Of a DNA stretch of 64,000 nt, positions 1,689 through 54,676 are shown piece by piece (positions within the stretch are counted from its first letter, which is position 1; the number at the start of each line of letters is the position of its first letter). Below the pieces are notes generated by a model, which did no database searches, was not told the DNA's origin, and saw only the letters and a program-made list of their open reading frames with translations. The position numbers were made by a program, and so were the translations under genes. The DNA is from Burkholderiales bacterium (GTDB lineage Bacteria > Pseudomonadota > Gammaproteobacteria > Burkholderiales > JBBRTU01): assembly GCA_038244115.1 (NCBI GenBank), contig JBBRTU010000005.1, positions 866 through 64,865 of the forward strand, read 5' to 3'.

Positions 1689-1816
1689 GGGACGCAGAGG
1701 GACGCAGATAAGCGCAGATAGAACAAAAAATATATCGCAAACGCCTTTGCTTGAAGGGGAACAACAACTCCTCAACGAATTAAACCATCTGCGGTAATCG
1801 GCTTTTATCTGCGTCC
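1689..1816. repeat. CGCAGAT-heptamer palindromic intergenic element (copy 1)
   Basis: Left arm is GGGACGCAGAGGGACGCAGATAAGCGCAGATAG. Right arm is CCATCTGCGGTAATCGGCTTTTATCTGCGTCC. The internal TGAAGGGGAAC...CTCAACGAATT segment resembles copy 4 in inverted orientation. Confidence 0.8.
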
Positions 1817-1831
1817 AACAGCCGTTTCAGG

Positions 1832-2346: not shown

Positions 2347-3033
2347 ATGTCCAAATTTAGAATTGCCCCCAGCATCCTTTCCGCCAACTTCGCCAAGCTG
2401 GGCGAGGAAGTAGACAACGTTCTCGCTGCCGGCGCTGACATTGTCCACTTTGATGTGATGGATAACCATTACGTACCTAATCTGACCATCGGCCCGCTGG
2501 TATGCGAAGCCCTGCGCAAACATGGCGTGACCGCACCCATCGACGTGCATCTGATGGTCAAGCCGGTGGACCGCATCATTCCCGATTTCGCCAAGGCGGG
2601 CGCCACCTACATCACGTTCCACCCCGAGGCTTCCGAGCACATCGACCGCACTATCGGCCTGATCAAGGAATGCGGTTGCAAGGCTGGCCTGGTATTCAAC
2701 CCGGCCACGCCGTTGGATGCGCTGGAATACACGCTGGACAGGCTCGACATGGTGCTGTTGATGTCGGTGAACCCTGGCTTCGGCGGTCAAAAATTTATCC
2801 CCTATGTGCTGGAAAAAGCGCGCAAGGTGCGCCAGATGATCGATGCTTCTGGTCGCGACATCAGCCTGGAAATCGACGGTGGCGTGGGCACGGCCAATAT
2901 TCTTGAAGTGGCCAAGGCCGGTGTGGATACATTCGTGGCGGGTTCTGCGGTATTCGGTGCGGCCAAGGCTAGCGACCCGCACCATTACGACACGATCATC
3001 GGCGCATTGCGTGCCGAGTTGGCGAAAGCGTAA
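2347..3033 (+). CDS. rpe: Ribulose-phosphate 3-epimerase
   Basis: [22 protein letters not shown]...[14 protein letters not shown]...[10 protein letters not shown]...IDGGV. Start trimmed to the ATG at 2347. Confidence 0.93.
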
Positions 3034-3037
3034 CTTC

Positions 3038-3727
3038 ATGATGAAGACATCTTTTCCGCTTGCCATCAAGGCCGTAGTTATCGACCTTGATGGCACGCTG
3101 TTGCATACCGCGCCGGATCTGGCTGACGCTGCCAAACGCATGGCCGAGGAACTCGGCTTGCCGGAAATCTCCGAGGATACGGTCAAGACCTACATCGGCA
3201 ACGGCGTATCACGTCTGGTCAAGCGCGTACTCACCCGCGACATGAACGCGGAGCCGGATGCGGCTTTATTCGAGAAAGCCCTGCCGATTTACGAGAAGCA
3301 TTACCTGGCAGGCGTCAGCCGGCAAAGCCGGCCCTTTCACGGTGTGCCAGAAGGTCTGACGGCGCTGCGCGCAGCAGGTTTCAAGCTGGCATGTATCACC
3401 AACAAGGCAGAGAAATTCACCCTGCCGCTGTTGAAAGATACCGGCTTGATTGGCTTTTTCGAGTTGATCCTGTCGGGCGATTCGCTGCCAAAAAGAAAAC
3501 CTGATCCGCTGCCGTTGCTGCATGCCTGCGAAGTATTCGGCGTCCGGCCGGACGAACTGCTGCTGATCGGCGATTCGCTCAACGATACGCAGGCAGCACG
3601 GGCTGCACACTGTCATGTATTTTGCGTGCCTTACGGCTACAATCGCGGCAAGAGCGTAGCTGAACTGGATACCGATGCGGTAGTGGAATCCTTACTGGAT
3701 GCAGTGAAATTGATCAGAAAAGTTTGA
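3038..3727 (+). CDS. gph: Phosphoglycolate phosphatase (HAD family)
   Basis: HAD motif I is VIDLDGTLLHT and the C-terminal motif is IGDSLNDTQAARAA. Follows rpe, as is common in proteobacteria. Start trimmed to the ATG at 3038. Confidence 0.85.
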   Translation: MMKTSFPLAIKAVVIDLDGTLLHTAPDLADAAKRMAEELGLPEISEDTVKTYIGNGVSRLVKRVLTRDMNAEPDAALFEKALPIYEKHYLAGVSRQSRPFHGVPEGLTALRAAGFKLACITNKAEKFTLPLLKDTGLIGFFELILSGDSLPKRKPDPLPLLHACEVFGVRPDELLLIGDSLNDTQAARAAHCHVFCVPYGYNRGKSVAELDTDAVVESLLDAVKLIRKV

Positions 3728-3862: not shown

Positions 3863-5338
3863 ATGACTGAACAGGAATTTTACGAACTCGCCAAACAAGG
3901 CTACAACCGCATTCCACTGGTAAAGGAATTGCTGGCGGATCTGGACACGCCGCTGTCCGTTTATCTCAAGCTCGCCAACCAGCCGTTCTCTTATCTGCTG
4001 GAATCGGTGGTAGGCGGTGAGCGTTTCGGACGCTACTCGTTTATCGGCCTGCCTGCCAAGACCCGCATCCGCGTGCATGGCCATCTGGTCACGCTGGAAA
4101 ACGGCGTCGATATTGTCGAGCAACGCGAAGTTGCCGATCCGCTGACCTATATCAACGACTATCTGAACACTTTCAAAGCTGCACCGCGCAAAGGCCTGCC
4201 GCGCTTCTGCGGCGGACTGGTCGGTTACTTCGGCTACGACACGGTACGCTACATCGAGAAAAAACTCGCGCATAACACCAAGCCGGATAATCTGCACCTG
4301 CCCGATATTTTGCTGTTGCTTTCGGAAGAACTGGCGGTAGTGGACAACCTGTCGGGCAAACTGTATCTAATCGTCTACGCCGATCCCTTCACGCCGGACG
4401 CATATTTCATCGCACAGAACCGGCTGGGCGAACTGGCGAAGGAACTGCGCAAACCGGCCAACGCGCCGCTCACCAGCAAGGTGGAAGCTGCTATCCCCGT
4501 CTCGGAATTTGGCGAGGACGCTTTCAAGGCGGCTGTGGAAAAAGCCAAGCGTTATATCTTCGACGGCGACATCATGCAGGTGGTGCTGTCGCAGCGTATG
4601 AGTCAACCGTTCCACGCTTCGCCACTGTCGCTATACCGCACGCTGCGCACACTGAATCCCTCGCCCTACATGTTCTATTACGACATGGGCGGCTTCCATG
4701 TAGTGGGGGCATCGCCGGAAATTCTGGTGCGCAAGGAACATGACACCGTCACCGTGCGTCCCATTGCCGGTACACGCCCGCGCGGCATCACACGCGAGGA
4801 CGACGAAGCGCTGGCCAAGGAACTTCTGGCCGATCCAAAAGAACTGGCCGAGCATCTGATGCTGATGGATCTGGGCCGTAATGATATCGGTCGCGTGGCG
4901 GAAACCGGCTCGGTAAAAGTCACCGAGAACATGTTGATCGAGCGTTACTCGCACGTCATGCACATTGTTTCCAACGTCGATGGAAAATTAAAACCTGGGC
5001 TGGACGCCATGGATGTGCTGCGCGCTACCTTCCCTGCCGGTACCGTGTCCGGCGCGCCAAAAGTGCGCGCAATGGAAATCATCGATGAGTTGGAACCCAC
5101 CAAACGCGGCGTGTACGCAGGAGCCGTCGGCTACCTCAGTTTCAATGGCGACATGGATGTCGCCATTGCCATCCGTACCGCCGTGATCAAAGATAACACG
5201 CTGTATGTGCAGGCCGGCGCCGGCATCGTAGCCGACTCGGTAGCGCAAAGTGAATGGACTGAAACTCAGAACAAGGCGCGCGCCGTGCTGCGCGCAGCGG
5301 AAATCGCCCAGTTCGGCCTGAATGCCGAAAATCAATGA
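3863..5338 (+). CDS. trpE: Anthranilate synthase component I
   Basis: Typical TrpE sequence: [17 protein letters not shown] ... GTRPRG ... [14 protein letters not shown] ... [15 protein letters not shown]. Start trimmed to MTEQEF. Confidence 0.93.
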
Positions 5339-5339
5339 C

Positions 5340-5555
5340 ATGCAACAACTCGAATTTCATCTCACCGCTGAGTTTGTCGAACTCAACAATTTGCTCAAAC
5401 TGACTGGCGTGTGCGACAGCGGCGGCGCCGGAAAAATGCTGGTCGCTGCCGGCGAGGTATCGGTGGATGGGAGAGTGGAATTACGCAAGACCTGCAAAAT
5501 CCGCGCTGGCCAAGTGATCAGCCTGCGCAACGTACGCATCCGTGTCATCAGTTAA
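5340..5555 (+). CDS. S4-domain RNA-binding protein, YbcJ-like
   Basis: 71 aa. Contains LNNLLKLTGVCDSGGAGKMLVAAGEVSVDGRVELRKTCKIRAG, typical of the YbcJ family. The ATG lies 2 nt after the trpE stop. Confidence 0.7.
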   Translation: MQQLEFHLTAEFVELNNLLKLTGVCDSGGAGKMLVAAGEVSVDGRVELRKTCKIRAGQVISLRNVRIRVIS

Positions 5556-6067
5556 TTTCTTCAGGCCTTGCGGGATAGCGCCGTGGATTTCACCCTATGA
5601 GATGCATCTATCTGCTGGCTTGGTGTGAATGTTGGCGCTATACTTCAAGCGGTGCTAAAGAAGCTTTGCTGGATGCCGTCTACCCATGGATTATCGCGAA
5701 TATCTCAGGCCCCAGAAGATCAAGCAATCCACCAACAATGGTATTGTGTAGGTGTTCAGCCAACGTAATGTAAGAAGCTATCTTAAATAATATCGCGGGT
5801 GCGACTATGGCATGTGTTCTTCCGGCACGAAGCGGCGCAGCGCCGTTTGGTCATTCCAAACAAGCAAGGCGCGACACAGCCGGAGGGACACATGCCGACG
5901 TCCCGAAGGGTTGCAACCATCAAGCCTTGCAGCGTCGTTGCGCTCCTTGGCATCGTAGAATAACTACGACCGTCGTCGCGCGCCTAGCTGCCAGCCTTGC
6001 TGGTTGCAACGCATCCCACGATATTACTTAAGACAGCTTCTAATAGGCCCCTCTTTGACCGAGCAAT

Positions 6068-9644: not shown

Positions 9645-10214
9645 ATGAACCATCAAACAGTTTACTTCGTCCGCCACGGCGAAGCAGATTACAACTTGCT
9701 TGATCGGGTCAATGCCCACCCTGATGTGCGCAACAACCTCACCGTCACCGGCAAAGCGCAGGCTGCTTGCTGCTGCAAGGCACTGGCGGATGTGCCCATC
9801 GAATTGATTTATTGCTCCGAGTTTCCCCGAGCACGCCAGACAGCCGAGATCGTCAATGAGCATTTCGGCGTGCCGTTGGTGGTTGATCCGCTGATCAACG
9901 AAACCGGCGCATTTGCCTTTGAAGGAAAGCCGGCACGCTTATGGCATCAGGCGCAAGTGCCGGACAGACCAAGCGCGTTGGTGCCGGGTTGTGAGCCGTT
10001 TATGCACATGAAGCAACGGCTATCTGCCTTTCTCGAAAAACTGCGGGAAGTGCCCCAGCAGCATATCGTGGTGGTTTCGCATGAGGAACCTATCCAGGTC
10101 ATGCTGGGCATCCTTGAGAAAACCCCTGATGCAGTGGCCAGGAAACGGCCAATCAGTCACTGCTTGCCGATTCACATCCAACTTGCGCCTGCGCAATGCC
10201 CGCCCATTCACTGA
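9645..10214 (+). CDS. Histidine phosphatase family protein (phosphoglycerate mutase-like)
   Basis: VRHGEADYN (RHG motif) and a later VVSHEEP histidine. Confidence 0.75.
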   Translation: MNHQTVYFVRHGEADYNLLDRVNAHPDVRNNLTVTGKAQAACCCKALADVPIELIYCSEFPRARQTAEIVNEHFGVPLVVDPLINETGAFAFEGKPARLWHQAQVPDRPSALVPGCEPFMHMKQRLSAFLEKLREVPQQHIVVVSHEEPIQVMLGILEKTPDAVARKRPISHCLPIHIQLAPAQCPPIH

Positions 10215-10429
10215 CGAGGGCATTTATTCTTCGATAGCCTCAGCAATACCCATACAGCTCAGCCTGGCAGCCCCCTGGCTGGCCCACCGCATACTATGCG
10301 CAAAGGTTAAACTGTGGCAGAATTACCCCAAATATTGTACAAACATCCATAGACAGCCCGGTTACCCGGTTGGACAAGCTGTCAGTCCCAATTGTTAGAA
10401 ATACTAGCCAGCACTAACCAAAACAAGTT

Positions 10430-35166: not shown

Positions 35167-36120
35167 AAACGAAGGGGTCACACAAAACGAAGGGGTCAGG
35201 TCTAGACATTCCACTTCTCATCGCTCCCCACTAATCACCTTACTCACCATCGAATAGTGTATCTCCGACTGGCGCGCAATGGCCGCCATCGTGTAGCCGT
35301 ATTCGAGATAGGCGCGCCGGATTGTCTCATCGCGCGTTTGCTTGTCCTCCCGCACCCTCGCCGGAAACAGCGCCTTCAAGCTGGGCCGGTGCGCCAGGCG
35401 CTGAGCGCGCGGTATCTCCTTGAGGTCACTCTTTCCCTCAAGCAGCGGCTGCATCCGCTCCACAAATTGTTCCGAGCCGAGCAATACCTGCCCTTTCAAC
35501 TCCAGCCAAGGCGAGGGCAAGTTCTTTCCCTGCGCCACAAACGCCACATACTTGCGCCGGGCCACGGCGCGGCTGCGGCCAAACTGGCTTAACACCCAGT
35601 CTGTGGTCAACCACTCCGGTGCTGGCTGACTCCCGGCGGTTGCCAGGTAGTTGCTCCAAGGGTAGCGGTTGATATTTTTTACCATCTTGGCTCGAATGGG
35701 GTTGAGCACCACGTAGCGGCAAAGTTCTAGAAGATAACTATCCCGATCCACCATAATAGCTTTGAAGCGACCCTGGAATAGATGGCCAACACGGACGTGG
35801 CGGCGGTTGAAACGTTGGGTATACACGCCATTGAGCTGGCGCATGCCCAGCGAGAGATTGCTATCCGGCGTCTCAATCAGCAGATGATAGTGGTTGTCCA
35901 TCAGGCAGTAGGCGTGGCACAACCAGCCAAAGCGCGTAACCGCTTCCTCCAGCACGGCAAGAAACAGCAGCCTGTCTTCATCATCGGTAAAGATAGCCCC
36001 CTGCGCATTGCCACGAGAGGTCACGTGATAGATTGCACCAGGGAATTCGAGACGGAGGGGACGGGACATAAGCGAAGCTTACGCCAGCAAGGCTGAAATG
36101 TCTAGACCTGACCCTTTCGT
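35167..36120 (-). mobile_element. RAYT unit: tyrosine transposase gene bracketed by inverted REPs
   Basis: REP at 35185-35209 (AAACGAAGGGGTCAGGTCTAGACAT) and its inverted copy at 36098-36120 (ATGTCTAGACCTGACCCTTTCGT) flank the gene. Confidence 0.75.
35218..36069 (-). CDS. REP-associated tyrosine transposase (RAYT, IS200/IS605-like Y1 HUH), with DnaA-C-like HTH tail
   Basis: IYHVTSRGN, HUH motif NHYHLL, catalytic region RYVVLNPIRA. The C-terminal tail YTMAAIARQSEIHYSMVSKV is HTH-like. Confidence 0.85.
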   Translation of the reverse strand: MSRPLRLEFPGAIYHVTSRGNAQGAIFTDDEDRLLFLAVLEEAVTRFGWLCHAYCLMDNHYHLLIETPDSNLSLGMRQLNGVYTQRFNRRHVRVGHLFQGRFKAIMVDRDSYLLELCRYVVLNPIRAKMVKNINRYPWSNYLATAGSQPAPEWLTTDWVLSQFGRSRAVARRKYVAFVAQGKNLPSPWLELKGQVLLGSEQFVERMQPLLEGKSDLKEIPRAQRLAHRPSLKALFPARVREDKQTRDETIRRAYLEYGYTMAAIARQSEIHYSMVSKVISGER

Positions 36121-36232
36121 ATTCTTTTGTACTGTTTTCGAATCTGCCATAGCGCTTGCGTTTTTGAAAAAGTGATACTAACATCTACCTAACAATCACA
36201 TCTAGATACACATCCATTTTCAGGAGCAAGCC

Positions 36233-38455: not shown

Positions 38456-38823
38456 GGGTTTGCGACGTGGCCAGTTTGCGCAACAAATTTTGACCGTTGC
38501 GACGCGGCGACACAGCCGGACAAGGCTGGAATGCCTTATGTTTAAAGGCGCTTTGCGGGCCAGCGTGCGGCGGCCCCATTTATCCGAATTAACTGTTGAA
38601 GTATTAATCACCCTCTACAACGAAAAAATTCTCGCCCACTCAGCATTGCCCATGCCGTCTAAAACTGACGCGCTGCGTCACTTGTTTTCTTGGTGGTAAA
38701 TTTCTGCAAGGGTGAGGAAACACAACGCCATGTGCGTATTTCAACCCCAACCATCCACGGGGGCGAACAGATATCGCAGGACGTGAGTGTTGCGATTTAT
38801 ACCTGTTCATATATAATCAACTC

Positions 38824-39204
38824 ATGTCCCCCGCCCAAGAAAAGCCGCTTGAATGGATCGGCAGTAGCCACAAAGATTTAATGGTGTTGCCAATTGATAT
38901 ACGCCGGTTCTTCGGCTATGCCCTCTCACTGGCCCAGAGCGAGGATAAACACGATGCCGCAAAAGTGCTCAAGGGCTTTGGTGGTGCCGGAGTCCTTGAG
39001 GTGGTCGAAGACGATGCGGGTGGCACGTATCGCGCCGTCTACACCGTGAAATTCGAGGAAGCCGTGTTCGTCCCGCACTGCTTCCAGAAGAAGAGCAAAC
39101 GCGGAATTGCCACGCTAAAAGAGGACTTGGACATCATTCGCGCAAGGCTCAAGGTGGCCGAAGCGTTAGCAAAGGAGCTACGGAATGAAAAAACGGATCA
39201 TTGA
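38824..39204 (+). CDS. RelE/HigB-type toxin (Gp49-like), second paralog
   Basis: GVLEVVEDDAGGTYRAVYTVKFEEAVFVPHCFQKKSK. Same architecture as 37259-37585. Confidence 0.75.
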   Translation: MSPAQEKPLEWIGSSHKDLMVLPIDIRRFFGYALSLAQSEDKHDAAKVLKGFGGAGVLEVVEDDAGGTYRAVYTVKFEEAVFVPHCFQKKSKRGIATLKEDLDIIRARLKVAEALAKELRNEKTDH

Positions 39205-39520
39205 CGGAATCGAAGTGCAGCGCAGTTCCGGCAACGTGTACGCCGATCTTGGCCTGCATGACGCGGAAAAGCTCAAGATCAAAACCGGCTTGGTCATCGA
39301 AATTCGGAAGGCTATGCGCCGTCTTGGGCTGACCCAACAAGCGGCAGCAAAGCGCATGGGCATCACCCAGCCCAAGGTGTCCGACATGATGCGCGGGGAT
39401 TTCACGAACCTGTCCGAGCGCAAACTGATGGACTGCTTGAATCGGCTTGGCTATGACATCGAAATCAAGGTGAAACCCGCCGCTGAACCGATTGGTCACT
39501 TGATGATCGCCGTCGCCTGA
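39185..39520 (+). CDS. XRE-family HTH antitoxin (HigA-like), second paralog
   Basis: LGLTQQAAAKRMGITQPKVSDMMRGDFTNLSERKLMDCLNRLG. Overlaps the toxin gene by 20 nt. Confidence 0.8.
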   Translation: MKKRIIDGIEVQRSSGNVYADLGLHDAEKLKIKTGLVIEIRKAMRRLGLTQQAAAKRMGITQPKVSDMMRGDFTNLSERKLMDCLNRLGYDIEIKVKPAAEPIGHLMIAVA

Positions 39521-39624
39521 GCATAATGGGTACCCGCTACGGCCAGCAGATGGGGTCGTTGGACTTCGTGAGTTCAGCTTTTAGGTAGCGCAGGGGCCGG
39601 AGCTGGTAATAATTTTCGAGCGCC

Positions 39625-39900
39625 CTATCGATCTTCTCGCGTGTGCCAGAGCCGCAGTACGTAGAGCGTCGACTCCCGAATCTCGTAACGCATCTCATAG
39701 CGACCCACCAGAATGCGGCGCACCTCGCGCGGTGCAAACTCGTCCAACTTCTCTCCAATGCGCGGATTCGCCAGCAAGTTTGTCGGTGCAGCGATCAACG
39801 ATTGTACGGTGTGCGCCGCCGCCAACCTGTTCACCGAAGCTAAAAACTCATACAGTCGCGCCAAGTCGGACAACCCCTTGGTTGTCCATTTCAAATCCAT
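39625..39900 (-). CDS. ParE/RelE-family toxin
   Basis: 91 aa. ...REVRRILVGRYEMRYEIRESTLYVLRLWHTRE. Start trimmed to the ATG at 39900, which overlaps the antitoxin stop by 1 nt (TAATG). Confidence 0.8.
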   Translation of the reverse strand: MDLKWTTKGLSDLARLYEFLASVNRLAAAHTVQSLIAAPTNLLANPRIGEKLDEFAPREVRRILVGRYEMRYEIRESTLYVLRLWHTREDR

Positions 39901-40160
39901 TAACGCGGCACCGGCAACGGTTTGTCGGTGCTGAGGCTGTCTGCCCATGCCTGCACGGCTTGATGGTCGATCACTCGCCCGGCATCAACATCTGCCAACG
40001 CTTCTTGTGTCAGGCGACTGCGTTCTTCCTCCTGGTCGATCCAGGCGGACAGCGCTTGTTTCATAATCCAGCCACGCGAGCGCTCCAAGCGAGCGGCCAT
40101 TTGATCGACCCTTTCGGCTAATGGTAGCGGGACGTGGGCAGTCAACACTTTTGTGTTCAT
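39900..40160 (-). CDS. Ribbon-helix-helix (CopG/ParD-like) antitoxin
   Basis: MNTKVLTAHVPLPLAERVDQMAARLERSRGWIMKQAL. GGAGG RBS upstream. Start trimmed to the ATG at 40160. Confidence 0.75.
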   Translation of the reverse strand: MNTKVLTAHVPLPLAERVDQMAARLERSRGWIMKQALSAWIDQEEERSRLTQEALADVDAGRVIDHQAVQAWADSLSTDKPLPVPR

Positions 40161-40463
40161 GAGGCACCTCCTTTTAATCAAAATTAATCATAATGATTTG
40201 CCGTGATTAAAGCAAGATGAGGCTGGTTGGCAATAGTGTAGTCCAACGGGTTACGCTACAATCCGCTTTGCATAATATTGTTGTATAAATGCGCGGGTGA
40301 CAAGTAGCCAAAGCGTGCCGGAAACCCCGTGCATACGTCTGGATACCCATCTGCGCGGGTATGACGCAGTCTTTTCTAATTCGTGCCGAAGCAATAGCCA
40401 CCCTAACAATTAACAATTAGCCCGGTCTTAGCTAATGTGTGAGTTCATTACCGGAGATTTGCC

Positions 40464-40844
40464 GTGAAAGTCATATCAATGCATAAAGCAAAAAGCACAC
40501 TTTCGCAGCTAGTGCAGCGCGCTGCGGTCGGCGAAACCATCCTGATCGGGGCATATGGAAAAGTTGATGCAAAGCTGGTTGCTGCCACGCTGCCAACCGT
40601 GCGACAAAAGCGTATTGGGCAGTTGAACGCAGATGTACAAGTTCTACGCGTGGCCACCGCGGAAAGCGGGTTCATCGAACTGCCGGTTTTAGGGATACAT
40701 ACAGAGACGCTTGCTAAACTGCCGATGCTGCACCGCGACCCGTTCGACCGGTTGATTGTTTCCCAAGCCATCACGGAGCCGATGAGGTTACTGACTAGCG
40801 ATAGCGAGCTGGAAGCATATAGTGATCTAGTCCAAAGAATCTAG
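40464..40844 (+). pseudogene. In-frame fusion of a Phd/YefM-type antitoxin N-terminus to the C-terminal third of a PIN (VapC) toxin; probable deletion derivative
   Basis: Residues 1-60 (MKVISMHKAKSTLSQLVQRAAVGETILIGAYGKVDAKLV...KRIGQL) look like the antitoxin. The tail (LPMLHRDPFDRLIVSQAI..MRLLTSD) is a PIN C-terminus. The N-terminal acidic PIN residues are missing. Confidence 0.55.
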
Positions 40845-40954
40845 CGCTGAACATACCGCAGGGAACCGGTAGCGGAGGCGCCCTTGCCTGCACTATTTGC
40901 AGATCGTCACTCTATTCAGCGAATATTTCTCGCAGTGTATCGGATGTTTTCATG

Positions 40955-41096
40955 CGGCATCCAGTGCTGGCGTAGGAGGGCCGCCCTCGGCCCGATTTTG
41001 AATATCGCGGCGAGGGCGCCGCTCCTACTACAAAAACATGTCGCGTCGAGCCAGGCTCGCAGAACAAAGGAGCAGCCCACACCTTCAATTGCACCC
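40955..41096. repeat. MITE-like element, copy B (left terminus degraded)
   Basis: 40963-41096 aligns with 25558-25685 at about 85 percent identity. The right terminus CCTTCAATTGCACCC is retained. Confidence 0.75.
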
Positions 41097-42242: not shown

Positions 42243-42882
42243 AATCAAGCTACGCCGCCAGATGGTGAATGCTTCTCTGGAGCTGGTGGCGCGCGGCTTG
42301 AACCGCGGCGCTTCCGGTAATTTGAGCGTGCGTTGCGGCGCTGGCTTTCTGATCACGCCAACCGGCCTGTCACCGGAGGAAACCGCGCCGATTGATATTG
42401 TTACGATGGACCTGGCCGGCAATTGGCAGGGCAGGTGCAAACCGTCCAGCGAATGGCGCTTTCATCGCGACATCTTTGCGGCCCGCCCGGAGGTCAACGT
42501 GGTCGTGCACACGCACTCGATGTTTGCCACCACGCTTGCCTGTGTGGGGCTGGATATACCGGCCTTCCACTACATGATTGCGGTGGCGGGCGGCAAGGAT
42601 ATTCGCTGCGCGCCCTATGCCACTTTCGGCGGTCAGACATTATCCGATTACGCCGTCAAGGCACTGCAAGACCGCAAAGCCTGTTTACTGGGCAACCACG
42701 GCATGATTGTGCTGGGCAACACGCTGGCCGGTACCCTTGCCTTGACGGAGGAGGTGGAAGCCTTGTGTGAGCAGTATTGGCGAACGCTACAAATAGGCAA
42801 ACCGAATCTGCTAGCGGACGCGGAAATGGAGGTGGTGTTGGAGAAATTTAAAAGCTACGGTAAACCGCAGAAAAGCAATTGA
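42235..42882 (+). CDS. Class II aldolase/adducin family protein (MtnB dehydratase or Ald2-type aldolase)
   Basis: SGNLSVR, VVHTHS and GNHGMIVLG motifs. 8 nt overlap with mtnA. Start trimmed to the ATG at 42235. Confidence 0.8.
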
Positions 42883-42898
42883 ATGCATAACGGCAATT

Positions 42899-43021
42899 GG
42901 ACGCAGATAAAAGCCGATCAATACTGATATTCCATGGATACTCGACGGGTGCTGAGGTAGCCTCATACATTCCTGTCTAAACTAATAAATAATCTGCGTA
43001 AATCTGCTTTTATCCGCGTCC
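42899..43021. repeat. CGCAGAT-heptamer palindromic element (copy 3)
   Basis: GGACGCAGATAAAAGCCGATC ... AATCTGCGTAAATCTGCTTTTATCCGCGTCC. Confidence 0.8.
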
Positions 43022-44442: not shown

Positions 44443-45744
44443 TTAGAACTTCATGCCGTAGGCAATGCCCAGGGAATTTTCGTACATCTCGATTTTCTCA
44501 GTACCCGTATTGCCAGCACCCAACGCAGTAAACAACGAATTACCACTGACAGAATTCTTAGCCGCATGCATGTATGCCATGGTCAGCTCGGAACCTTTGT
44601 CCAACGCATATGTGAAGCCCGCAGTGTAGTGATCCTTCACAACAGCCGGCGCAAGGATATTGAAAGTCACGTCTCGCGATTGGATTGGATTATCAGTTGT
44701 GCCAAAACCTGCCCGAATTGTTAAATTACTGGTGTACTTGTACTCAACACCAATTTTCCAGACATCCACATCTGACCAACCAAAACCACGGCCATCACTG
44801 TTGCCTAGCGCGCTATTATTAGTGCTGGGGTTACCAACGGATTTGGTCTTGGCATAATTAATACGCTGATAATCAACCGCCACTGTCCAATCTTTGGCCG
44901 GAACGAACGCAATACCAAAGTTGTAGTTCTCGGGAATATCCATGTCACCCAGTTCGGCGAACAAACCCTTGTACTTATCAAATTTTTGCAAATTAACCTT
45001 CGTTGCATAAGCAGCACCAACACTAAAGGTGTCGGATATTTTGCCATAATAGCCAACGCGCAGACCCCAGCCGGTTGCGGTATCATTACCATTGTTGGTC
45101 AGGTTTGCACTATCGCCGGACAGCCCCGCAAAACCTTGCAGGCCCTCGGCTTTAAATTTTGCATAGCCAAGCAATGGGGACACACCGATCGAGTTAGTGG
45201 CATTTACTTTGTAAGCCCAGGTCGGCGCAATGATCAAATGTTCGAGGTTAACGCCTAATCTCGTGTTGCCACACAGCACGTTCTGACCAGTTCCGGCCAC
45301 GCCAAACGCTCCGCAAACGCCAGAACCAGCGCCTGTAATTTGACCAGCGGGGTAATCGGTATTCATGCCACCATTGCCAAAGACGCTTACGCCTAACGAC
45401 ATATTGGGATCTATCATCCGGTTATAGCCAAATTCTGGGATATAGAAGTTATTTTTTTCACTGTCGACTTGTGCATCCAAGCCATTAGCCGAGCCAGTAC
45501 GCTGCATTTTCCGCTTTGGGCTGAACCAATCCAAACCGATATCCATGCGATCACCAGCCCAAACCATGCTGGCAGGATTGTTGGCTCCACCAAAAGTATC
45601 ACCAGTCACTGCAGTTGACGCACCGGCCATCCCTTTGGCCTTCATGCCATAGCCATGAGAAAAGAAACCATAAGTTGCATGCGCCATGCCAGGCAGCGCA
45701 AAACCAGCAACCGCCATCACACCGATCAGTTTTTTGAGTTTCAT
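44443..45744 (-). CDS. FadL/OmpP1/TodX-family outer-membrane channel for hydrophobic compounds
   Basis: Signal peptide. N-terminal HGYGMKAKGMAGASTAV..D.FGGANNPASM hatch region. Alternating beta-strand pattern. C-terminal ...YGMKF. Confidence 0.85.
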   Translation of the reverse strand: MKLKKLIGVMAVAGFALPGMAHATYGFFSHGYGMKAKGMAGASTAVTGDTFGGANNPASMVWAGDRMDIGLDWFSPKRKMQRTGSANGLDAQVDSEKNNFYIPEFGYNRMIDPNMSLGVSVFGNGGMNTDYPAGQITGAGSGVCGAFGVAGTGQNVLCGNTRLGVNLEHLIIAPTWAYKVNATNSIGVSPLLGYAKFKAEGLQGFAGLSGDSANLTNNGNDTATGWGLRVGYYGKISDTFSVGAAYATKVNLQKFDKYKGLFAELGDMDIPENYNFGIAFVPAKDWTVAVDYQRINYAKTKSVGNPSTNNSALGNSDGRGFGWSDVDVWKIGVEYKYTSNLTIRAGFGTTDNPIQSRDVTFNILAPAVVKDHYTAGFTYALDKGSELTMAYMHAAKNSVSGNSLFTALGAGNTGTEKIEMYENSLGIAYGMKF

Positions 45745-45901: not shown

Positions 45902-47041
45902 TTACAACAAATCGCTCGAATCGCTTGTCCGAACGGACTCTCCGGCCATTTGCCGTTTAATAAGCTGCACGTCGTTGGCATTCAAGGCAAAGGGAAACGA
46001 AAGAATATCGCCCGGCGGCGAGTCACCGTAAGGGCGGTTGCAAGCGGAGATTTCTTCGTCGTCCGAACCGGGACAGCCTGAGGTCTGGAAGGGCTTGCCT
46101 GATTTAATCAGATCCTCAAGCAGGTCTTGCGGCAAACCGAAATCCGTCACCCGCCCTGCGGCGTTGAAGCGCATATTGCGTACACTACCGCCGGCATAGT
46201 CAATGATGAAACGCGCCAGTTGCACGCGCCGCCATTGGGCGCGGTCCACTGCGGGCCAATCTTCCATCATTGAGCCACGCTCCGGAAAGAATGCAAACAT
46301 GTGGTTGTGGCCGCCCATGTCCTTGATGCGCTGGCAGACCGTCAGTATCTCCTGCTCGGTCTCGCCCATACCGCCAATAAGATGCGCGCCGAATTTTTCC
46401 GGGCCGAAAATTTCTGCCGCCCACTCGATTGCCTGCCAGTATTTTTCCCAGCGGTGGGGACTATCCACGGTCTTGCCCCGCGTGCGTTCAAAAATTTCCG
46501 GTGTAACTGCGTCCAGCGCCACGGTGAAAATTTCTGCGCCGAGCGCCTTCAGTTCGACCAGGTCTTCACGCTCCATGCTGGTGGGATTGGAAAGAATGGA
46601 GACCGGGATATGCGGCAAGGCCGCCACCCATTTTTTTAGCAGGATGGGCGTTGCCGCATCCGAGGCCGGATGGGTGATCATGGAAATGCACATGCGCTGG
46701 AACTGCCCTTTGTCACCGCCCGCTTTAACGCGCTCGATCACTTCATCGTAGCTGGCGGTTGGCCAATCCACGCGAATAAAATTGCGGTCGGCATAGTCGC
46801 GCGCTTCCTCGCGGTGACGCGCCAGGCCGCAGTAGGAACAATTGGCGCGGCAGCCCTCGGGGAAGGTCACCAGCAGATTGAGGCAGTGCGTACACGCAGT
46901 ACGATGCATGACGCCTTGCACCAGACCCAAGGTAATCGCCGCAGCGGTGCTCATCTGCACATACTCGGGCGAACGCATCTCTGGTGTCTTGATGTGATGG
47001 TCGGGCCGGTAGAAATTGATTGGCTGCAATGCTTCGTTCAT
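45902..47041 (-). CDS. Radical SAM protein, LipS1/LipS2-type (lipoyl synthase of the sLpl pathway)
   Basis: CRANCSYC (CxxxCxxC). Same operon as sLpl ligase, LbpA and a second radical SAM gene. Confidence 0.7.
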   Translation of the reverse strand: MNEALQPINFYRPDHHIKTPEMRSPEYVQMSTAAAITLGLVQGVMHRTACTHCLNLLVTFPEGCRANCSYCGLARHREEARDYADRNFIRVDWPTASYDEVIERVKAGGDKGQFQRMCISMITHPASDAATPILLKKWVAALPHIPVSILSNPTSMEREDLVELKALGAEIFTVALDAVTPEIFERTRGKTVDSPHRWEKYWQAIEWAAEIFGPEKFGAHLIGGMGETEQEILTVCQRIKDMGGHNHMFAFFPERGSMMEDWPAVDRAQWRRVQLARFIIDYAGGSVRNMRFNAAGRVTDFGLPQDLLEDLIKSGKPFQTSGCPGSDDEEISACNRPYGDSPPGDILSFPFALNANDVQLIKRQMAGESVRTSDSSDLL

Positions 47042-47059
47042 TTTTTCTCCACAACCTAT

Positions 47060-47190
47060 GGGACGCAGATAAAATCCGATTACCGCAGATTCAATTCATT
47101 GAAGAGATATGCCCCCTTCACCCCTATCGTGCGCTAGGCTTTTTAATGAATTTCTGGTCTATCTGCGCTAATCCGCGTTTATCTGCGTCC
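47060..47190. repeat. CGCAGAT-heptamer palindromic element (copy 4)
   Basis: GGGACGCAGATAAAATCCGATTACCGCAGATTC ... CTATCTGCGCTAATCCGCGTTTATCTGCGTCC. Confidence 0.85.
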
Positions 47191-47229
47191 AAGCAATTCT
47201 TCCAGGGTTAACATCTCCACAATCTATGT

Positions 47230-47647
47230 GGACGCAGATAAAATCACTTTCTTGCATTGTTGAAAGCCTTGCGTCTGACTTCCGCCTTTGGGCCAAAGTT
47301 AACCAAAATCCCCAATTCAATTTTGGTTGCCTTCAAATAATTTAGCAACTGAGCATCATGTTCTGACAGCAAGGATTTTGCGGCCTTGATTTCTATGATC
47401 ACTTTATCATCTACCAAAATATCCGCCACATATTCACCAACGAGAATGCCTTTGTAACTTACCGTGATCGGCATTTGCGCTACAACATGCAGGCCAAGCT
47501 TGCGTAACTCGATCACCAGTGCATTCTCATAGACTCTCTCCAGAAACCCATAACCAAGGCTATTATAGACTTCATAGAATGCACCAATTATCTGTTCGGT
47601 AAGCTCGACATGTTTGAAATCCTGCAAATCTGCGTTCATCTGCGTCC
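47230..47647 (-). mobile_element. Gene-bearing member of the CGCAGAT element family (copy 5)
   Basis: GGACGCAGATAAAATC at 47230-47245 and ATCTGCGTTCATCTGCGTCC at 47628-47647 are inverted. They bracket exactly one ORF, the GxxExxY nuclease. Confidence 0.65.
47244..47639 (-). CDS. GxxExxY-family PD-(D/E)XK nuclease-like protein
   Basis: ELTEQIIGAFYEVYNSLGYGFLERVYENAL (GxxExxY) ... VDDKVIIEIKA (D..ExK). Start trimmed to the ATG at 47639, giving MNADLQDF. That ATG lies inside the repeat arm. Confidence 0.8.
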   Translation of the reverse strand: MNADLQDFKHVELTEQIIGAFYEVYNSLGYGFLERVYENALVIELRKLGLHVVAQMPITVSYKGILVGEYVADILVDDKVIIEIKAAKSLLSEHDAQLLNYLKATKIELGILVNFGPKAEVRRKAFNNARK

Positions 47648-47650
47648 CCA

Positions 47651-48718
47651 CTAAACAAAATATTCGGGAAAGGCGATCCAACCTTGCCGATGCACATCAT
47701 CATCCTGTGCATGCCGCATATTCCACAACGACTTCATCCACTGCCGCTTGGCCACCGCGCGCGCTAGCGTTGTGCCAAATTGATCGCGCAGGTCTTCTTC
47801 ATATTCTGCCAGCGCTGCATGATCACCCGCCAACCATGCCGCAGCCGCCTCACCGGCACACTCGCCCGACACTACCGCAGCGGCAATGCCGGCACCGGTG
47901 ATGGGATGAGTCAAGCCCGCCGCATCGCCCACGAATAATACATTACCCACTACCAAGCGCTCACGCATGCCACTGACCGGAATCGCGCCACCGGTACGCG
48001 CTAGAATTTCGCTGCCCACCAAACCTTCATCTACCAGTTGCCGGTGCAATCTATCCAGCGGAACTTTCAGATCATCGGTGAACTGTTTGTCCAGGCCAAG
48101 TCCAAGATTGGCCACCTGCCCTTTCGGGAACAACCAGGCATAACCACCAGGGTAAGCATCCGACAACCAGATGTCCGTATCGGTATGGGGCCGCTCAAGC
48201 GGTACCGTGTACTGCCGCGTGTGCACCACCTCCAACGCGGGCAAGCTTAACGCTGCTGCCACAAAGGAATGCGGGCCGTCGGCAGCCACTAGCACACGAT
48301 AACAAATATTCCGCTCACCTTCGGGCGTTTCGATTGCCGCCTGTTTGTTTTCCGCATCCAGCCGTCGCAAACGACTACCAAGCAACAGGCGCGCGCCATG
48401 CGCTTGCGCCTCTCGCGCCAGCGCCTGATCAAATGCAGCGCGATCTATCATCAGACCTGCGAACTTCGACTGCTCCGCGACGCCTGACGGCAACATAGTG
48501 TTCATCGCTAAAATGCGCTGCACCAAAATGCCTTCAGCTTGCGCGTAGGCGGAAAGCGGCAGCGGAATAAACTCGGCACATTGCACTGGTATGCCAATTT
48601 CATTCTTGCGCTCCACAACAAGCACACTGGCCCCGGCCTTGGCGGCTGCGGCTGCCGCCGAACCCCCGGCTGGGCCGAGGCCGATTACTAGCACATCGAT
48701 CTGCTCCATCGCGCTCAA
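47651..48718 (-). CDS. Geranylgeranyl-reductase-family FAD-dependent oxidoreductase
   Basis: N-terminal dinucleotide fold VLVIGLGPAGGSAAAAAAKAG. Also GDAAG. Operon context with sLpl and LipS. Confidence 0.8.
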   Translation of the reverse strand: MSAMEQIDVLVIGLGPAGGSAAAAAAKAGASVLVVERKNEIGIPVQCAEFIPLPLSAYAQAEGILVQRILAMNTMLPSGVAEQSKFAGLMIDRAAFDQALAREAQAHGARLLLGSRLRRLDAENKQAAIETPEGERNICYRVLVAADGPHSFVAAALSLPALEVVHTRQYTVPLERPHTDTDIWLSDAYPGGYAWLFPKGQVANLGLGLDKQFTDDLKVPLDRLHRQLVDEGLVGSEILARTGGAIPVSGMRERLVVGNVLFVGDAAGLTHPITGAGIAAAVVSGECAGEAAAAWLAGDHAALAEYEEDLRDQFGTTLARAVAKRQWMKSLWNMRHAQDDDVHRQGWIAFPEYFV

Positions 48719-49782
48719 GCCGTCACTGTTGCCTGCATCAGCGCATCGTGCAGCACCAACGCAAAATCGCCTGCTGTCAGCATCAACATATCCGCATCAC
48801 ATCCGGCAAAAAAATCTGCGATGCACTTATCGGCGCTAGGCACCGGCACATCCTTCAGCGCGGATTCCAGGTCAGCGATGGTGCGGCGCGGGCTGATAAA
48901 AAAATCGCCGGTAAACCATACCTGCTTTATGCGTTGCGTCGTTGCATCGAATGCGACTGTTGCGCTTAACAGTCCGCCAGGAAATTTGCGCGATGCTGTC
49001 AACAGGGGCGCATCGGATTGGGGACGGCTTAACAGATTGATCCAATCCGGGTGATCGATTTCCGCAAGCGCCAGGTGATAGCGTTGCTGCTCGGATTCGC
49101 TGAGCGCCCCCGGCTCGAAGCGCACACCAAATTCGTCGGCAAAGGCTTGCACCAGGCACGACTGCACGGCATCCAATGCGGGCGTGGTGCCCAACAGATC
49201 GCGCAAATTGCTTACCCGCTCACGCGCCGAGGCGATGGCTTTGTCCGATAATTTTTCTGCCGGAATGCGCAGCACGCGCAGCATTTTTTCCACATCAAAT
49301 TCGATCAGCAGCGTGCCTTGATACATCAGTGCGTCGCCATCAAAGGCGCCGCCAGTACCGGAAATTTTCCGGCCATCAACTTCGATATCGTTGCGCGGCC
49401 GAAAGCGCGCATCCACGCCAAGCTTGGAAATGCCCCGCGCTGCCGCCTCGCAAATACGGCGGGAGAAGCCTTGCATATCCGGCGTACCCAGTTCATGTTT
49501 ATGCAGATACAGCTCCCAACCGAGCTGGGTTGCATCGAAATAAATCGCACCGCCACCGGTAATGCGTCGCTGAATGTCGATGCCGTTTTCACGGCAATAA
49601 TCCAGATTCAGTTCCTGTTCTGCGCTCTGGTGATAGCCCAGCAAGGCACAGGGCGTAAAGCGCAGGAAACGCAGGGTACTGGGCGACTCGCCCTGCTGAC
49701 GTGCTTCCAGCAAGGCGCGGTTAAGTGCGATATTTTCTGCCGCGCGGCGCAAGCCAGTATCGAGAATGCGCCAGGTCGCCAT
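48715..49782 (-). CDS. Lipoate-protein ligase (sLpl(AB)-type)
   Basis: LplA-like: LRFLRFTPCALLGYHQ...RRITGGGAIY...RKISGTGG. 355 aa including the C-terminal accessory domain. Confidence 0.85.
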   Translation of the reverse strand: MATWRILDTGLRRAAENIALNRALLEARQQGESPSTLRFLRFTPCALLGYHQSAEQELNLDYCRENGIDIQRRITGGGAIYFDATQLGWELYLHKHELGTPDMQGFSRRICEAAARGISKLGVDARFRPRNDIEVDGRKISGTGGAFDGDALMYQGTLLIEFDVEKMLRVLRIPAEKLSDKAIASARERVSNLRDLLGTTPALDAVQSCLVQAFADEFGVRFEPGALSESEQQRYHLALAEIDHPDWINLLSRPQSDAPLLTASRKFPGGLLSATVAFDATTQRIKQVWFTGDFFISPRRTIADLESALKDVPVPSADKCIADFFAGCDADMLMLTAGDFALVLHDALMQATVTA

Positions 49783-49784
49783 GT

Positions 49785-50912
49785 TTATGCCGCGACCACC
49801 TGAATGCCGGCCAGCCGATGATCGACAGATTTGCGCGCGCGTTCACGCTCGACAAGATGCCGCATGTCCAGTTGCAAACCGGCGTCGCTTTGCATGCCCA
49901 TGACTTCATCGCCCACGGCAATAGAACAGCAGGCTGGCGTCACGCGTACTTCTCGTCCGAGCCGAATGGCCAGTTCCACCGCGCCGTCGGCGGGATGAGC
50001 GATGCCGTTCAAGCCCGCCATCACCGCGTAGGCATCGACTTGCAACTTGGCCAAGCCCGGCGGGCGGGCGCAACCCAGCAGCAGAGGCATAGCTGGCAGC
50101 GCTGCTCTGGCGTCCATGAAGAACTGCCCTGTTTCGACGCTGTCCGGTACAACGAAAGGTCGATCAGCGGGTGCGTAGAAGGGCATGGCCACCACCAGTA
50201 CCAACGCGTCCGGCTGGTGGCGCTGAATGATCTCCAAAGCTTGCCATTCGCCCAAAAAACGGCCGTAATGCAAGCCCAGCACGATGTGGGGCACGACCTT
50301 CATTGCTGTCGCAACCAGGCTTTCCAGCGTGCGCTCGAAGTCATCGACAGATCGCTTCAGATGATAGACCTGAGCGATCGTGTCCTGCGCGCCGATCACG
50401 TCCATCATCGCTACATCGATGCCAGCATCAGCCATATGCTGCGCACTGGCACTGTCCGCCAGCGCGGTGTGCACGGCTATTTTGAAAGTGGGGAATGCGT
50501 CCTTGATGCGCCGGATAACCGGGTAGAAAGCATCGTACTCGACCTCGTTGCGATGATTCGATCCGCCGGTGAGCAACATGCCTGCGGCGCCGCTGCCAAT
50601 CTGTTCATTCACCACGCGCCATAGGGCTTCCGGCGTCGTGGCAGGCAACATCGGTTCGAGTACTTTCGCCTTGCAATGGTCGCATTGCAACTTGCACTTG
50701 TTGCCCGTAATAGAGACTGCCGGCCAGGCACTTTTGCCACAACCGGAGATTTCGGAAGACGTATAAGATTTGAACGTGGGCGTATGAAAATTGATTCGAG
50801 ATGCTGCAATATTTCTTGAGGCGCGACGCTCCAACTCGGCAACCAGGTCGGCATCAAGCGCCAGATCTTCGAGAGGTTCCACTTGCCGCACAATTTCCAG
50901 CCAGGTGTTCAT
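49785..50912 (-). CDS. Radical SAM protein, LipS1/LipS2-type (second copy)
   Basis: CKLQCDHC (CxxxCxxC). Sits between lbpA and the ligase gene. Confidence 0.7.
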   Translation of the reverse strand: MNTWLEIVRQVEPLEDLALDADLVAELERRASRNIAASRINFHTPTFKSYTSSEISGCGKSAWPAVSITGNKCKLQCDHCKAKVLEPMLPATTPEALWRVVNEQIGSGAAGMLLTGGSNHRNEVEYDAFYPVIRRIKDAFPTFKIAVHTALADSASAQHMADAGIDVAMMDVIGAQDTIAQVYHLKRSVDDFERTLESLVATAMKVVPHIVLGLHYGRFLGEWQALEIIQRHQPDALVLVVAMPFYAPADRPFVVPDSVETGQFFMDARAALPAMPLLLGCARPPGLAKLQVDAYAVMAGLNGIAHPADGAVELAIRLGREVRVTPACCSIAVGDEVMGMQSDAGLQLDMRHLVERERARKSVDHRLAGIQVVAA

Positions 50913-53914: not shown

Positions 53915-53975
53915 GGACGCAGATTTCGCAGATATTCGCAGATCAAATCCTGCCAATCGGCTTTGATCTGCGTCC
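53915..53975. repeat. Short CGCAGAT-heptamer palindromic element (copy 6) in the soeB-soeC spacer
   Basis: GGACGCAGATTTCGCAGATATTCGCAGATCAAA...TTTGATCTGCGTCC. Three direct heptamers oppose one inverted heptamer. Confidence 0.85.
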
Positions 53976-53980
53976 GGAAA

Positions 53981-54676
53981 TTACCGTTTCACAACCCTAT
54001 TAACCAAGCCCTTCAGTCTTTCCTTGAACCCCGGTTTCCCCAGCCCTTCGATTGGGATGGGTTTGGCCTTGCGCGGTGGCAGGTACATATTGGTCGGGTT
54101 GTAACCCAATTCAGGCATGAGCGGGTAACCGCTGCGCTCGCGCACCACTTGGCTAACCGCCGAATCCGGGTCGTCAAAATCACCAAACATCCGTGCATGC
54201 GACGGACAGGTCAGCACACAAGCCGGTTGCCGTTCTTCCACAGGAATTTCCAGATCGTAAATGCGATCCACGCACAGGGTGCACTTCTTCATGGTGCCGC
54301 TTTCACGATCCAGTTCACGCGCGCCGTAAGGACAAGCCCATGAGCAGTAATTGCAACCCATGCACTTATCCTGGTCGATTAGTACAATGCCATCCTCGGC
54401 GCGCTTGTAGGAAGCGCCGGTGGGACACACTGTAACGCAGGCCGCGTCCTCGCAGTGCATGCACGACATGGGAAAATTGATGGTCTTGTTGTGCGGGTAC
54501 TCGCCCACCTCGTAGTGGCGCACGCGGTTAAACCACACGCCAGACGGCTCCGCGCCATAGGGTTGATAGTCTGTGAGCGGCCCCGTGGTACCAGAGGCAT
54601 TCCACTGCTTGCACGACACCACACATGCGTGACAGCCGACGCAGACGTCAATATCGATGACCAAACCTAATCTCAT
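53981..54676 (-). CDS. soeB: 4Fe-4S subunit of sulfite dehydrogenase (quinone), SoeB
   Basis: Four Cys clusters (CVGCHACVVSC, CMHCEDAAC, CMGCNYCSWAC, CTLC...). 231 aa. 4 nt overlap with soeA. Confidence 0.85.
   Translation of the reverse strand: MRLGLVIDIDVCVGCHACVVSCKQWNASGTTGPLTDYQPYGAEPSGVWFNRVRHYEVGEYPHNKTINFPMSCMHCEDAACVTVCPTGASYKRAEDGIVLIDQDKCMGCNYCSWACPYGARELDRESGTMKKCTLCVDRIYDLEIPVEERQPACVLTCPSHARMFGDFDDPDSAVSQVVRERSGYPLMPELGYNPTNMYLPPRKAKPIPIEGLGKPGFKERLKGLVNRVVKR

Follow-up and report, generated by a model that had tools for sequence, protein, structure and literature searches.

A GxxExxY nuclease gene framed by its own phased heptamer arrays, a candidate selfish cassette of bacterial operons

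A 64,000-nt stretch of a Burkholderiales genome (contig JBBRTU010000005.1; this whole stretch is called the window below) carries a lipoate-assembly operon that is interrupted by a small gene for a nuclease of the GxxExxY family and by short palindromic repeats. We found that inverted arrays of a phased heptamer repeat enclose the nuclease gene, that GxxExxY genes of many phyla are bracketed by arrays of their own, and that relatives of the window differ in what they carry at the same operon junction. We favor, with a probability of roughly 0.55, the reading that positions 47230-47647 are a compact selfish cassette accompanied by gene-less derivatives that resemble MITEs (transposable elements of miniature size with inverted repeats) and REPINs. 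Its logic would be that of REP (repetitive extragenic palindromic) elements and their associated tyrosine transposases (RAYTs), built here on a PD-(D/E)XK nuclease. This reading, in which the nuclease would act on its own arrays, is preferred because the nuclease is the only protein that is consistently encoded between them.

The nuclease open reading frame (ORF; 47244-47639, minus strand) encodes 131 amino acids from its ATG, followed by a TGA stop. It matched both the TIGR04256 GxxExxY profile (E = 1.2e-41; 141.8 bits, with a curated cut-off of 35) and the PF13366 PDDEXK_3 profile (E = 7.7e-43; 146 bits, with a cut-off of 22), and a tblastn search identified it as the only GxxExxY gene in the 64 kb. 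Its upstream neighbor encodes a flavoprotein of the geranylgeranyl reductase (GGR) family (47651-48718, minus strand; 206.8 bits, with a cut-off of 158.8), which belongs to the lipoate-assembly cluster, and the downstream neighbor (45902-47041, minus strand) encodes a LipS2-like radical SAM lipoyl synthase, the best match being LipS2 at 190 bits, short of the curated cut-off of 270. On the gene strand, the sequence runs from the TAG stop of the flavoprotein gene through TGG into GGACGCAGATGAACGCAGATTTGCAGGAT...AAGTGATTTTATCTGCGTCC, and the nuclease ORF is bracketed exactly by inverted GGACGCAGAT-type arms. The 5' arm (47619-47647, minus strand) consists of three units at a 10-nt phase, GGACGCAGAT, GAACGCAGAT, and TTGCAGGAT. 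Its sequence GGACGCAGATGAACGCAGAT (47647 to 47628) begins 3 nt past the flavoprotein stop, the arm holds a GGA(C) Shine-Dalgarno-like motif together with the ATG at 47639-47637, and residues 1-7 of the nuclease (MNADLQD) are encoded by its repeat units. The 3' arm, GATTTTATCTGCGTCC (47230-47245, read from 47245 to 47230 on the minus strand), has a single unit left and overlaps the TGA stop. An earlier note on this DNA had described a lipoate-assembly operon interrupted by a GxxExxY nuclease gene and repeats, with inverted termini around exactly one ORF and an arm that starts 3 nt after the upstream stop and supplies the start codon and first residues of the nuclease. The profile matches and gene coordinates agree with that description, as do the two arms at the ORF ends, the TAG-TGG-arm layout, and the position of the ATG and codons 2-7 inside the 5' arm.

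The same bracket recurs far outside this genome. We analyzed 80 GxxExxY loci from one-genome-per-species assemblies (1.06 Mb in total) among whose record titles are Desulfobacteraceae, other Thermodesulfobacteriota, Nitrospirota, anammox Planctomycetota (Scalindua and Brocadia), Chloroflexota, Bacteroidota, Ignavibacteria, Acidobacteriota, and unclassified Proteobacteria. Nearly all of the genes had a direct array on the 5' side and an inverted array on the 3' side, with units of about 10 nt. The unit core was [AC][GA]CNGAT (an RCNGAT core) and the outermost unit was G[GA]AC[GA]CNGAT; the unit in the window is CGCAGAT. A deliberately crude pattern for such arrays hit 315 sites in the 1.06 Mb and 21 in shuffled sequence. 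By this pattern, 50 of the 80 genes had a 5' array, 53 had a 3' inverted array, and 38 had both; on inspection by eye, most loci that the pattern missed had arm variants specific to their lineage, or else the gene stood between two whole palindromes. Units stood most often 9 nt (124 cases) or 10 nt (196 cases) apart, a sharp peak that shuffles (2-3 cases) did not show; a harmonic lay at 19-20 nt. Convergent array pairs less than 150 nt apart (57 pairs) were gene-less palindromes, and 35 of the 44 pairs that were 150-2500 nt apart enclosed the central GxxExxY gene. No other recurrent cargo or transposase was found between convergent arrays in the approximately 1 Mb of flanking DNA, where a few ordinary genes lay between separate palindromes. 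The question raised by the earlier note, whether GxxExxY genes are bracketed by repeats elsewhere, is thus answered positively by these array and pair counts, and over the 80 loci the GxxExxY paralogs do show an association with the repeats.

The arms are cognate to the gene that they enclose. At the variable positions of the unit core, the dominant variants of the 5' and 3' arms agreed in 27 of 51 loci, where 9.3 were expected. Furthermore, paralogs in one genome have different arms: L005 contains an MNAD-type gene with CGCAGAT arms (9996-10424) and, 4.6 kb away, a 53% identical paralog with CACAGAC arms (5320-5783), while L011 contains one paralog with CGCAGAT arms and a second (42% identical) with CACGGAT/CACAGAA arms. 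A subfamily of 37-40% identity uses CGCNGAG units. Such differences between paralogs in one genome are explained neither by a host factor nor by a single transposase acting in trans.

The DNA repeat also dictates the N-terminus of the nuclease. The protein begins with M[NDST][AT]D in 105 of the 120 closest homologues (64-92% identity), almost always as MNAD, and in 19 of 150 cluster representatives of the family; the named homologues are from Elusimicrobiota, Planctomycetota, Thermodesulfobacteriota, and WOR-3. Several longer gene calls read ...GTQMNAD, which is the translation of GGnACnCAG-ATG-AAC-GCA-GAT. In all 15 MNAD-type loci, which come from several phyla, GGAC[GA]CNG stands immediately before the start codon. 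Codon choice follows the repeat. Of the MNAD-type genes, 14 of 14 use AAC for Asn2, a codon that serves 24 of the 108 other Asn positions in these genes; GAT stands for Asp4 and Asp7 in 28 of 28 cases (52 of 70 for their remaining Asp codons), and GCA for Ala3 in 11 of 12. With a unit ACACAGAT or ACACGGAT, the protein starts with MNTD or INTD instead. MNAD at the protein start is therefore a by-product of the DNA repeat, because the 5' arm would double as a portable translation start (GGA...ATG).

Comparison of the lipoate junction in an allelic series from metagenome contigs revealed gain, loss, and replacement at this site (identities are nucleotide identities of the GGR and LipS2 genes to the window). 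In L090 (GGR 68%, LipS2 78%), the junction is empty and has a 20-nt spacer. In L091-L093 (GGR 94%, LipS2 98%), the cassette is present and the 130-bp palindrome that accompanies it in the window is absent; the nuclease gene is 88.6% identical to that of the window at the nucleotide level and the protein (P0002) 92%, and the 3' arm of L091 has three units, ATCTGCGcttATCTGCGtaaATCTGCGTCC, that directly abut the LipS2 ribosome-binding region. In L082-L087 (95-97%), the ORF is absent and an 83-nt spacer ends in the arm remnants ...GCGTAAATCTGCGTCC, while L088 (80-84%) has a degenerate 5' arm (GTAAATGAAC...TTTTTAGG) fused to a two-unit 3' arm. The last codon and stop of the flavoprotein gene vary between alleles (V-TAG in the window, G-TAG in L091, AA-TGA in L082), so the element reaches the very end of that gene. 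The orthologous junctions, to which the earlier note had pointed as a place for empty sites and duplications, hence include an empty one (L090), differing alleles, and one 15-nt duplication described below; the relatives that carry the gene at this junction (L091-L093) carry it with arms. A different REP-type hairpin precedes the arm remnant in L082-L087 (AGGTCGGGTTACGCTACGCTAACCCGACCT, at 9936-9970 of L082), which suggests that the spacer of this junction attracts several repeat families.

The duplication flanks the gene-less palindrome beside the nuclease gene. Relative to L091, the window has 153 extra nt, which comprise a 23-nt leader (TGTTAACCCTGGAAGAATTGCTT on the minus strand, 47191-47213, outside the palindrome) and the 130-bp palindrome (47061-47190, minus strand), flanked by 15-nt direct repeats. 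The first copy, TCTCCACAATCTATG, is at 47214-47228; the second, TCTCCACAACCTATG, is at 47046-47060, and its minus strand carries the Shine-Dalgarno motif (GGAG) of the LipS2 gene. The two copies are 93% identical, CATAG(A/G)TTGTGGAGA, and a 15-nt match of this kind between random 50-mers has a chance of 0.0015. The 15-nt sequence is single-copy in L091, L082, and L088, and the 130-bp element is missing at the junction in L091/L092 and L082. From these alignments, the 153-nt element looks like a recent insertion with target duplication, and recombination mediated by the arms is an alternative explanation.

A second operon, encoding a Tad pilus, shows comparable turnover among relatives with secretins of 81-83% protein identity. 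The spacer between RcpC and the secretin holds an intact cassette in L106, of which only the 5' 72 nt and 3' 42 nt are left in L094. Between the secretin and TadG, L094 has a cassette of the MNAD type, L104 has one that is 37% identical together with the old 3' arm, and L106 has neither cassette nor arm. In L094, the 3' arm gives the called start of the next gene, MRISENQRP..., and the first codons of the downstream TadG-like gene, SENQRP, are a former 3' arm in both L094 and L104. The cassette sites (L094:1295-1535 and 2990-3430; L104:1540-2080; L106:1085-1600) belong to two subfamilies at adjacent junctions.

The window itself contains four gene-less copies of 61-130 bp without an ORF, which have terminal inverted repeats of up to 30 nt and share their ends with the GxxExxY cassette. 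The copy beside the nuclease gene has 30-nt arms (47061-47090 and 47161-47190) that are 87% complementary and separated by 70 nt, and its DNA hairpin has a z-score of -5.9; the earlier note had recognized this palindrome, with a size and position (131 bp, 47060-47190) that we correct to 130 bp at 47061-47190. Another copy (1690-1836, minus strand; palindrome 1690-1816, leader 1817-1836) is located between two minus-strand ORFs, and a third (42880-43021, plus strand; leader 42880-42898, palindrome 42899-43021) is downstream of a plus-strand gene. The minimal member (53915-53995, minus strand; palindrome 53915-53975 plus leader) resembles a 5' arm with a CAGGATTT unit fused directly to a three-unit 3' arm; this unit, which encodes Q-D-F in the nuclease gene, is kept here. 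The minimal member occupies the whole 84-nt spacer between the Fe-S subunit and membrane subunit genes of a molybdopterin oxidoreductase operon, the gene content of which was inferred from the relative L082. In an alignment, a related leader of about 20 nt stands outside the palindrome in all four copies, which also share the loop in part; the copies thus appear to have multiplied as units of their own (leader, two arms, and loop). CGCAGAT occurs 33 times in the window, where 12.0 +/- 3.9 were expected and none of 100 shuffles reached 33. There are 19 matches to GGACGCAGAT with at most one mismatch against 4.3 expected, and all nine exact copies fall within five elements (1690-1816, 42899-43021, 47061-47190, 47230-47647, and 53915-53975). 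No convincing target-site duplication was found at 1690 and 53915, and at 42899 there was only a weak 11-mer candidate.

In genomes as in the window, cassettes are embedded in operons in the sense orientation. On the upstream side, 56 of 64 neighboring genes were co-directional (median gap 64 nt); on the downstream side, 57 of 62 were (median gap 92 nt). Within 46900-47800 of the window, we found no terminator-like site and no promoter-like site on the strand of the nuclease gene; the opposite strand had two weak promoter-like matches, a chance-level number. Because the neighbors are co-directional and the gene has no promoter- or terminator-like site of its own, the cassette is predicted to be expressed by read-through.

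These features may be joined into the following mechanism. The cassette consists of 2-4 direct units on the 5' side and the same units inverted on the 3' side, forming cognate arrays around the nuclease gene; it sits in sense within a host operon and would rely on host transcription and bring along a translation start in its 5' arm. The 130-bp palindrome and the three other window copies would be its gene-less members, multiplied as leader-arms-loop units. The nuclease, probably as a dimer or higher oligomer, would bind the phased heptamers on DNA and cut at or near the arrays, and host repair or recombination might then copy or move the unit, either by transposition or by homing-like conversion of gene-less arrays. 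Extended to the whole family, GxxExxY proteins could be the enzymes of an unrecognized, domain-wide class of bacterial mobile DNA, a PD-(D/E)XK counterpart of RAYT/REPIN, in which each lineage recognizes its own arrays and spreads itself and gene-less palindromes into operon spacers while the translation signals of the arm keep the insertion harmless. We advance this extension tentatively and put it a little short of even odds. In a still more radical version, the nuclease would remove or process its own unit at the level of RNA.

Several observations weigh against a selfish cassette moved by its own nuclease. Family members without one or both arms exist (L103 and L102), and a candidate target-site duplication accompanies only one element, that flanked by 47046-47060 and 47214-47228. 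The gene-less window copies are co-oriented with local transcription in four of four cases, an orientation that is not expected from a model acting purely on DNA. At 42899 and 53915, the palindromes apparently occupy the same positions in L082 (89-97% identity, with small gaps), which indicates that recent mobility is low, and the gene seems to be largely vertically inherited once inserted, since L091-L093 share the cassette at 94-98% identity. We also looked for one exact protein in several contexts as a sign of recent transposition and abandoned this line because the exact protein P0009 occurred in 24 contigs, all at one junction. Finally, to our knowledge, a PD-(D/E)XK nuclease cannot rejoin DNA alone.

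The most serious rival, which we nevertheless consider unlikely, places the arms at the RNA level. By pairing, the arms would hide the AUG and ribosome-binding site of a nuclease that may be toxic, and they might also form a processing site, for example for RNase III, as in ORF-bearing intervening sequences (IVSs) of 23S rRNA; the gene-less copies would represent mRNA elements of the REP kind or cassettes in decay, and the role of GxxExxY would be cellular (defense, repair, or addiction). In the 427-nt transcript, both the minimum free energy and centroid folds are indeed closed by an arm-arm stem that covers the AUG (z = -3.67). The orientation of about 90% of cassettes along their neighbors, the like orientation of the four gene-less copies, the lack of gene-strand promoter-like and terminator-like sites, and the conversion of the 3' arm into a downstream gene start in L094 and L104 also fit an RNA element. 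Against it, G.U-compatible changes are not favored on the sense strand among the arm mismatches (27 would fit the sense strand and 29 the antisense strand), and transversions make up 57 of the 113. Heptamers at a 9-10-nt phase, separated by variable spacers of 2-3 nt, would be better suited to a protein that contacts one side of a DNA duplex than to an unbroken helix. The phasing by one helical turn, the cognate arms of each paralog, and the missing G.U-type compensation are the reasons why we favor a protein-binding role at the DNA level. The shared leaders and loops of the gene-less copies, which point to multiplication as units, and the copy that looks like a recent insertion with its 15-nt duplication also count against an RNA element. 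A known RNA family or intrinsic terminator was discarded as a candidate, because Rfam gave no match at the gathering threshold over the whole window and none at E<=5 around the locus, and no terminator-like site was seen in 46900-47800. RNA pairing is in any case compatible with mobility and could be a second layer rather than an alternative.

Somewhat less likely still is that the nuclease is a passenger: the palindromes would be moved in trans by another enzyme, of the RAYT/IS200 type or another transposase, and the nuclease gene, perhaps encoding a toxin or defense protein, would have been captured repeatedly between arms. The window does have a single RAYT-like gene, which encodes an IS200-like Y1 transposase of 283 amino acids (35218-36069, minus strand, in a unit at 35172-36122; PF01797, E = 4e-11), and PD-(D/E)XK enzymes are not known as stand-alone transposases. 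Gene-less copies also outnumber gene-bearing ones, by 4 to 1 in the window and with 57 gene-less pairs in the fetched loci. The Y1 transposase unit, however, is bracketed by an inverted repeat of its own, GGGGTCAGGTCTAGACAT/ATGTCTAGACCTGACCC, which is unrelated to the heptamer family, and we rejected this transposase as the mobilizer of the arrays for that reason. Neither a transposase nor any other recurrent gene appeared between the convergent arrays of the flanks described above, and a single trans-acting enzyme does not explain the different arms of paralogs in one genome. The fusion of the arm with the start codon in many subfamilies, as judged from the M[NDST][AT]D starts in the closest homologues and the cluster representatives, also speaks against repeated capture of a passenger. 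The RAYT-like unit was found in the relative L082 as well.

That an ancestral small gene merely lies near unrelated intergenic repeats, as the presence of family repeats in several other intergenic regions of the window might suggest, is very improbable given that the bracket recurs with covarying arms in 80 loci of many phyla, that the arm encodes the protein start, and that close relatives lack the ORF while a more distant one lacks the entire element.

A close functional parallel to a nuclease-encoding cassette is the REP/REPIN-RAYT system, whose gene-repeat association was itself inferred from a flanking arrangement (PMC3116915, PMC3337134, PMC8266576). Both combine dispersed short intergenic palindromes with one small nuclease-type gene flanked by inverted copies, and in both, several cognate gene-repeat pairs may coexist in a genome; the resemblance is functional only. 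The enzyme here is a PD-(D/E)XK protein, whereas RAYT is an HUH Y1 transposase. REPs are 20-40-bp hairpins with a GTAG/CGTC head (PMC3733652), whereas the present arms are arrays of heptamers phased at 9-10 nt that start with GGAC or GAAC. The present gene occupies precisely the interval between its arms and takes its start codon from the arm, and the family crosses phyla at 60-70% identity, whereas RAYTs are reported to be mostly vertical and typically present in one copy per genome. With insertion sequences and their MITEs, the cassette shares terminal inverted repeats, short gene-less derivatives in the genome, insertion polymorphism in close relatives, and one flanking duplication. It differs from them in having no DDE, HUH, serine, or tyrosine transposase, its sole ORF being a 131-aa nuclease domain, and in its single duplication (15 nt), strong orientation bias with host transcription, and multi-unit array ends.

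Free-standing homing endonuclease genes include the PD-(D/E)XK enzyme I-Ssp6803I, which is a precedent for this fold in a homing enzyme. They too are small promoterless nuclease ORFs, co-oriented between conserved genes and present or absent at the same junction; unlike the cassette, they are not known to have terminal inverted arrays or multicopy gene-less derivatives, and their target is the uninterrupted homologous site. Integron gene cassettes are likewise promoterless single-ORF units, tightly packed in sense and each with an imperfect palindromic site, whereas the present units are not arrayed by an integrase, have arms on both sides, and show no attC core consensus. ORF-bearing IVSs of 23S rRNA, such as the Coxiella IVS with S23p (PMC4990558), also comprise a small ORF within inverted repeats that pair in the transcript, reside in a host transcription unit, and are regarded as selfish. 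They differ in occupying rRNA helices rather than mRNA operons and in their protein family, and the arms of the present cassette are phased arrays.

The GxxExxY family is large: of the cluster representatives in a 50%-identity library, 23,783 matched its profile at E<=1e-3 and 8,607 did so at E<=1e-10. A survey of the PD-(D/E)XK superfamily lists the function of PF13366/TIGR04256 as 'Unknown' and notes 'multiple transfers' (PMC3424549). The window protein has the GxxExxY motif and the PD-(D/E)XK residues (helix-1 E, D, and E-x-K); a 30-sequence alignment shows no variation at G31, E34, Y37, D73, and E83 and a conservation of at least 90% at K85. An AlphaFold2 model (mean predicted confidence, pLDDT, 90.9) has residues 1-6 below 50, predicted to be disordered. 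Foldseek matched the model to Cas4 SSO0001, lambda exonuclease, and Hjc with probabilities of about 1 and template modeling (TM) scores of 0.45-0.57, and more weakly to tRNA-splicing endonucleases; no sequence homologue was found in the PDB. The active site looks intact, and the structural matches point to no substrate. Fifteen of the best 150 cluster representatives (P0241-P0245 and others) have two tandem GxxExxY domains in about 260 amino acids, and L003 has two separate GxxExxY genes in tandem; the tandem domains hint that the functional unit may be a dimer. PADLOC gave only marginal Cas4-core similarity (E = 0.002-0.035), on which ground a known anti-phage defense protein was dismissed, and PHROGs gave one weak match to a phage endonuclease family. 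Carriage by phages was also set aside, as GxxExxY loci are nearly absent from viral contigs: 2.9 million of them contained two, of which one had no arms and the other no more than a 5' array.

In the literature on GxxExxY, PDDEXK_3/PF13366, RAYT/REPIN, IVS proteins, and MITEs, from a search that mostly left subscription journals outside, we found no description of the gene-array association; one paper uses GxxExxY purely as a domain label, and among the papers with the term, no title or abstract connects it with repeats. There is a substantial chance that this repeat family with the cognate nuclease gene that it flanks constitutes a distinct class of mobile element. An orphan family is thereby tied to a cognate DNA motif, which gives a testable hypothesis, since the flanks of each gene reveal the candidate substrate of its protein. 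Should the arrays be moved by the nuclease, this would be a new enzymatic solution to the problem posed by REPs and MITEs, and the cassettes would be among the most widespread small selfish elements in bacteria. Regardless of mobility, the arrays create spurious N-terminal extensions, hypothetical ORFs (MNAD..., MNADERR..., SENQRP...), and assembly breaks, and they put translation signals inside operons, where they can alter the C-terminus or start of host genes. The operon affected here is the lipoate-assembly cluster of a sulfur-oxidation locus. A simple model of the arrays could let annotation pipelines recognize them.

As for the surrounding genes, the operon continues upstream of the flavoprotein gene with an LplA-like ligase (48715-49782, minus strand) and a LipS1-like radical SAM gene (49785-50912, minus strand), so that the minus-strand gene order is LipS1-like, LplA-like, GGR flavoprotein, nuclease, and LipS2-like. 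The closest named homologues of LipS2 (about 81-82% identity) come from Azospira, Pelomicrobium, and Burkholderiales metagenome-assembled genomes, which makes a betaproteobacterial host probable. Immediately 3' of LipS2, a gene for a FadL/TodX-type outer-membrane channel (44443-45744) has only 66% nucleotide identity to its counterparts in L082 and L091, unlike the adjoining LipS2 gene, which is 97-98% identical in both; this divergence looks like allele replacement or a hypervariable surface protein. Beyond the aldolase/IF-2B-like genes, the window (38700-40960) is rearranged with respect to L082 (16078-16885), a relative of 95-97% identity: at this place, L082 carries a PemK toxin pair, as opposed to about 2.2 kb of different sequence in the window.

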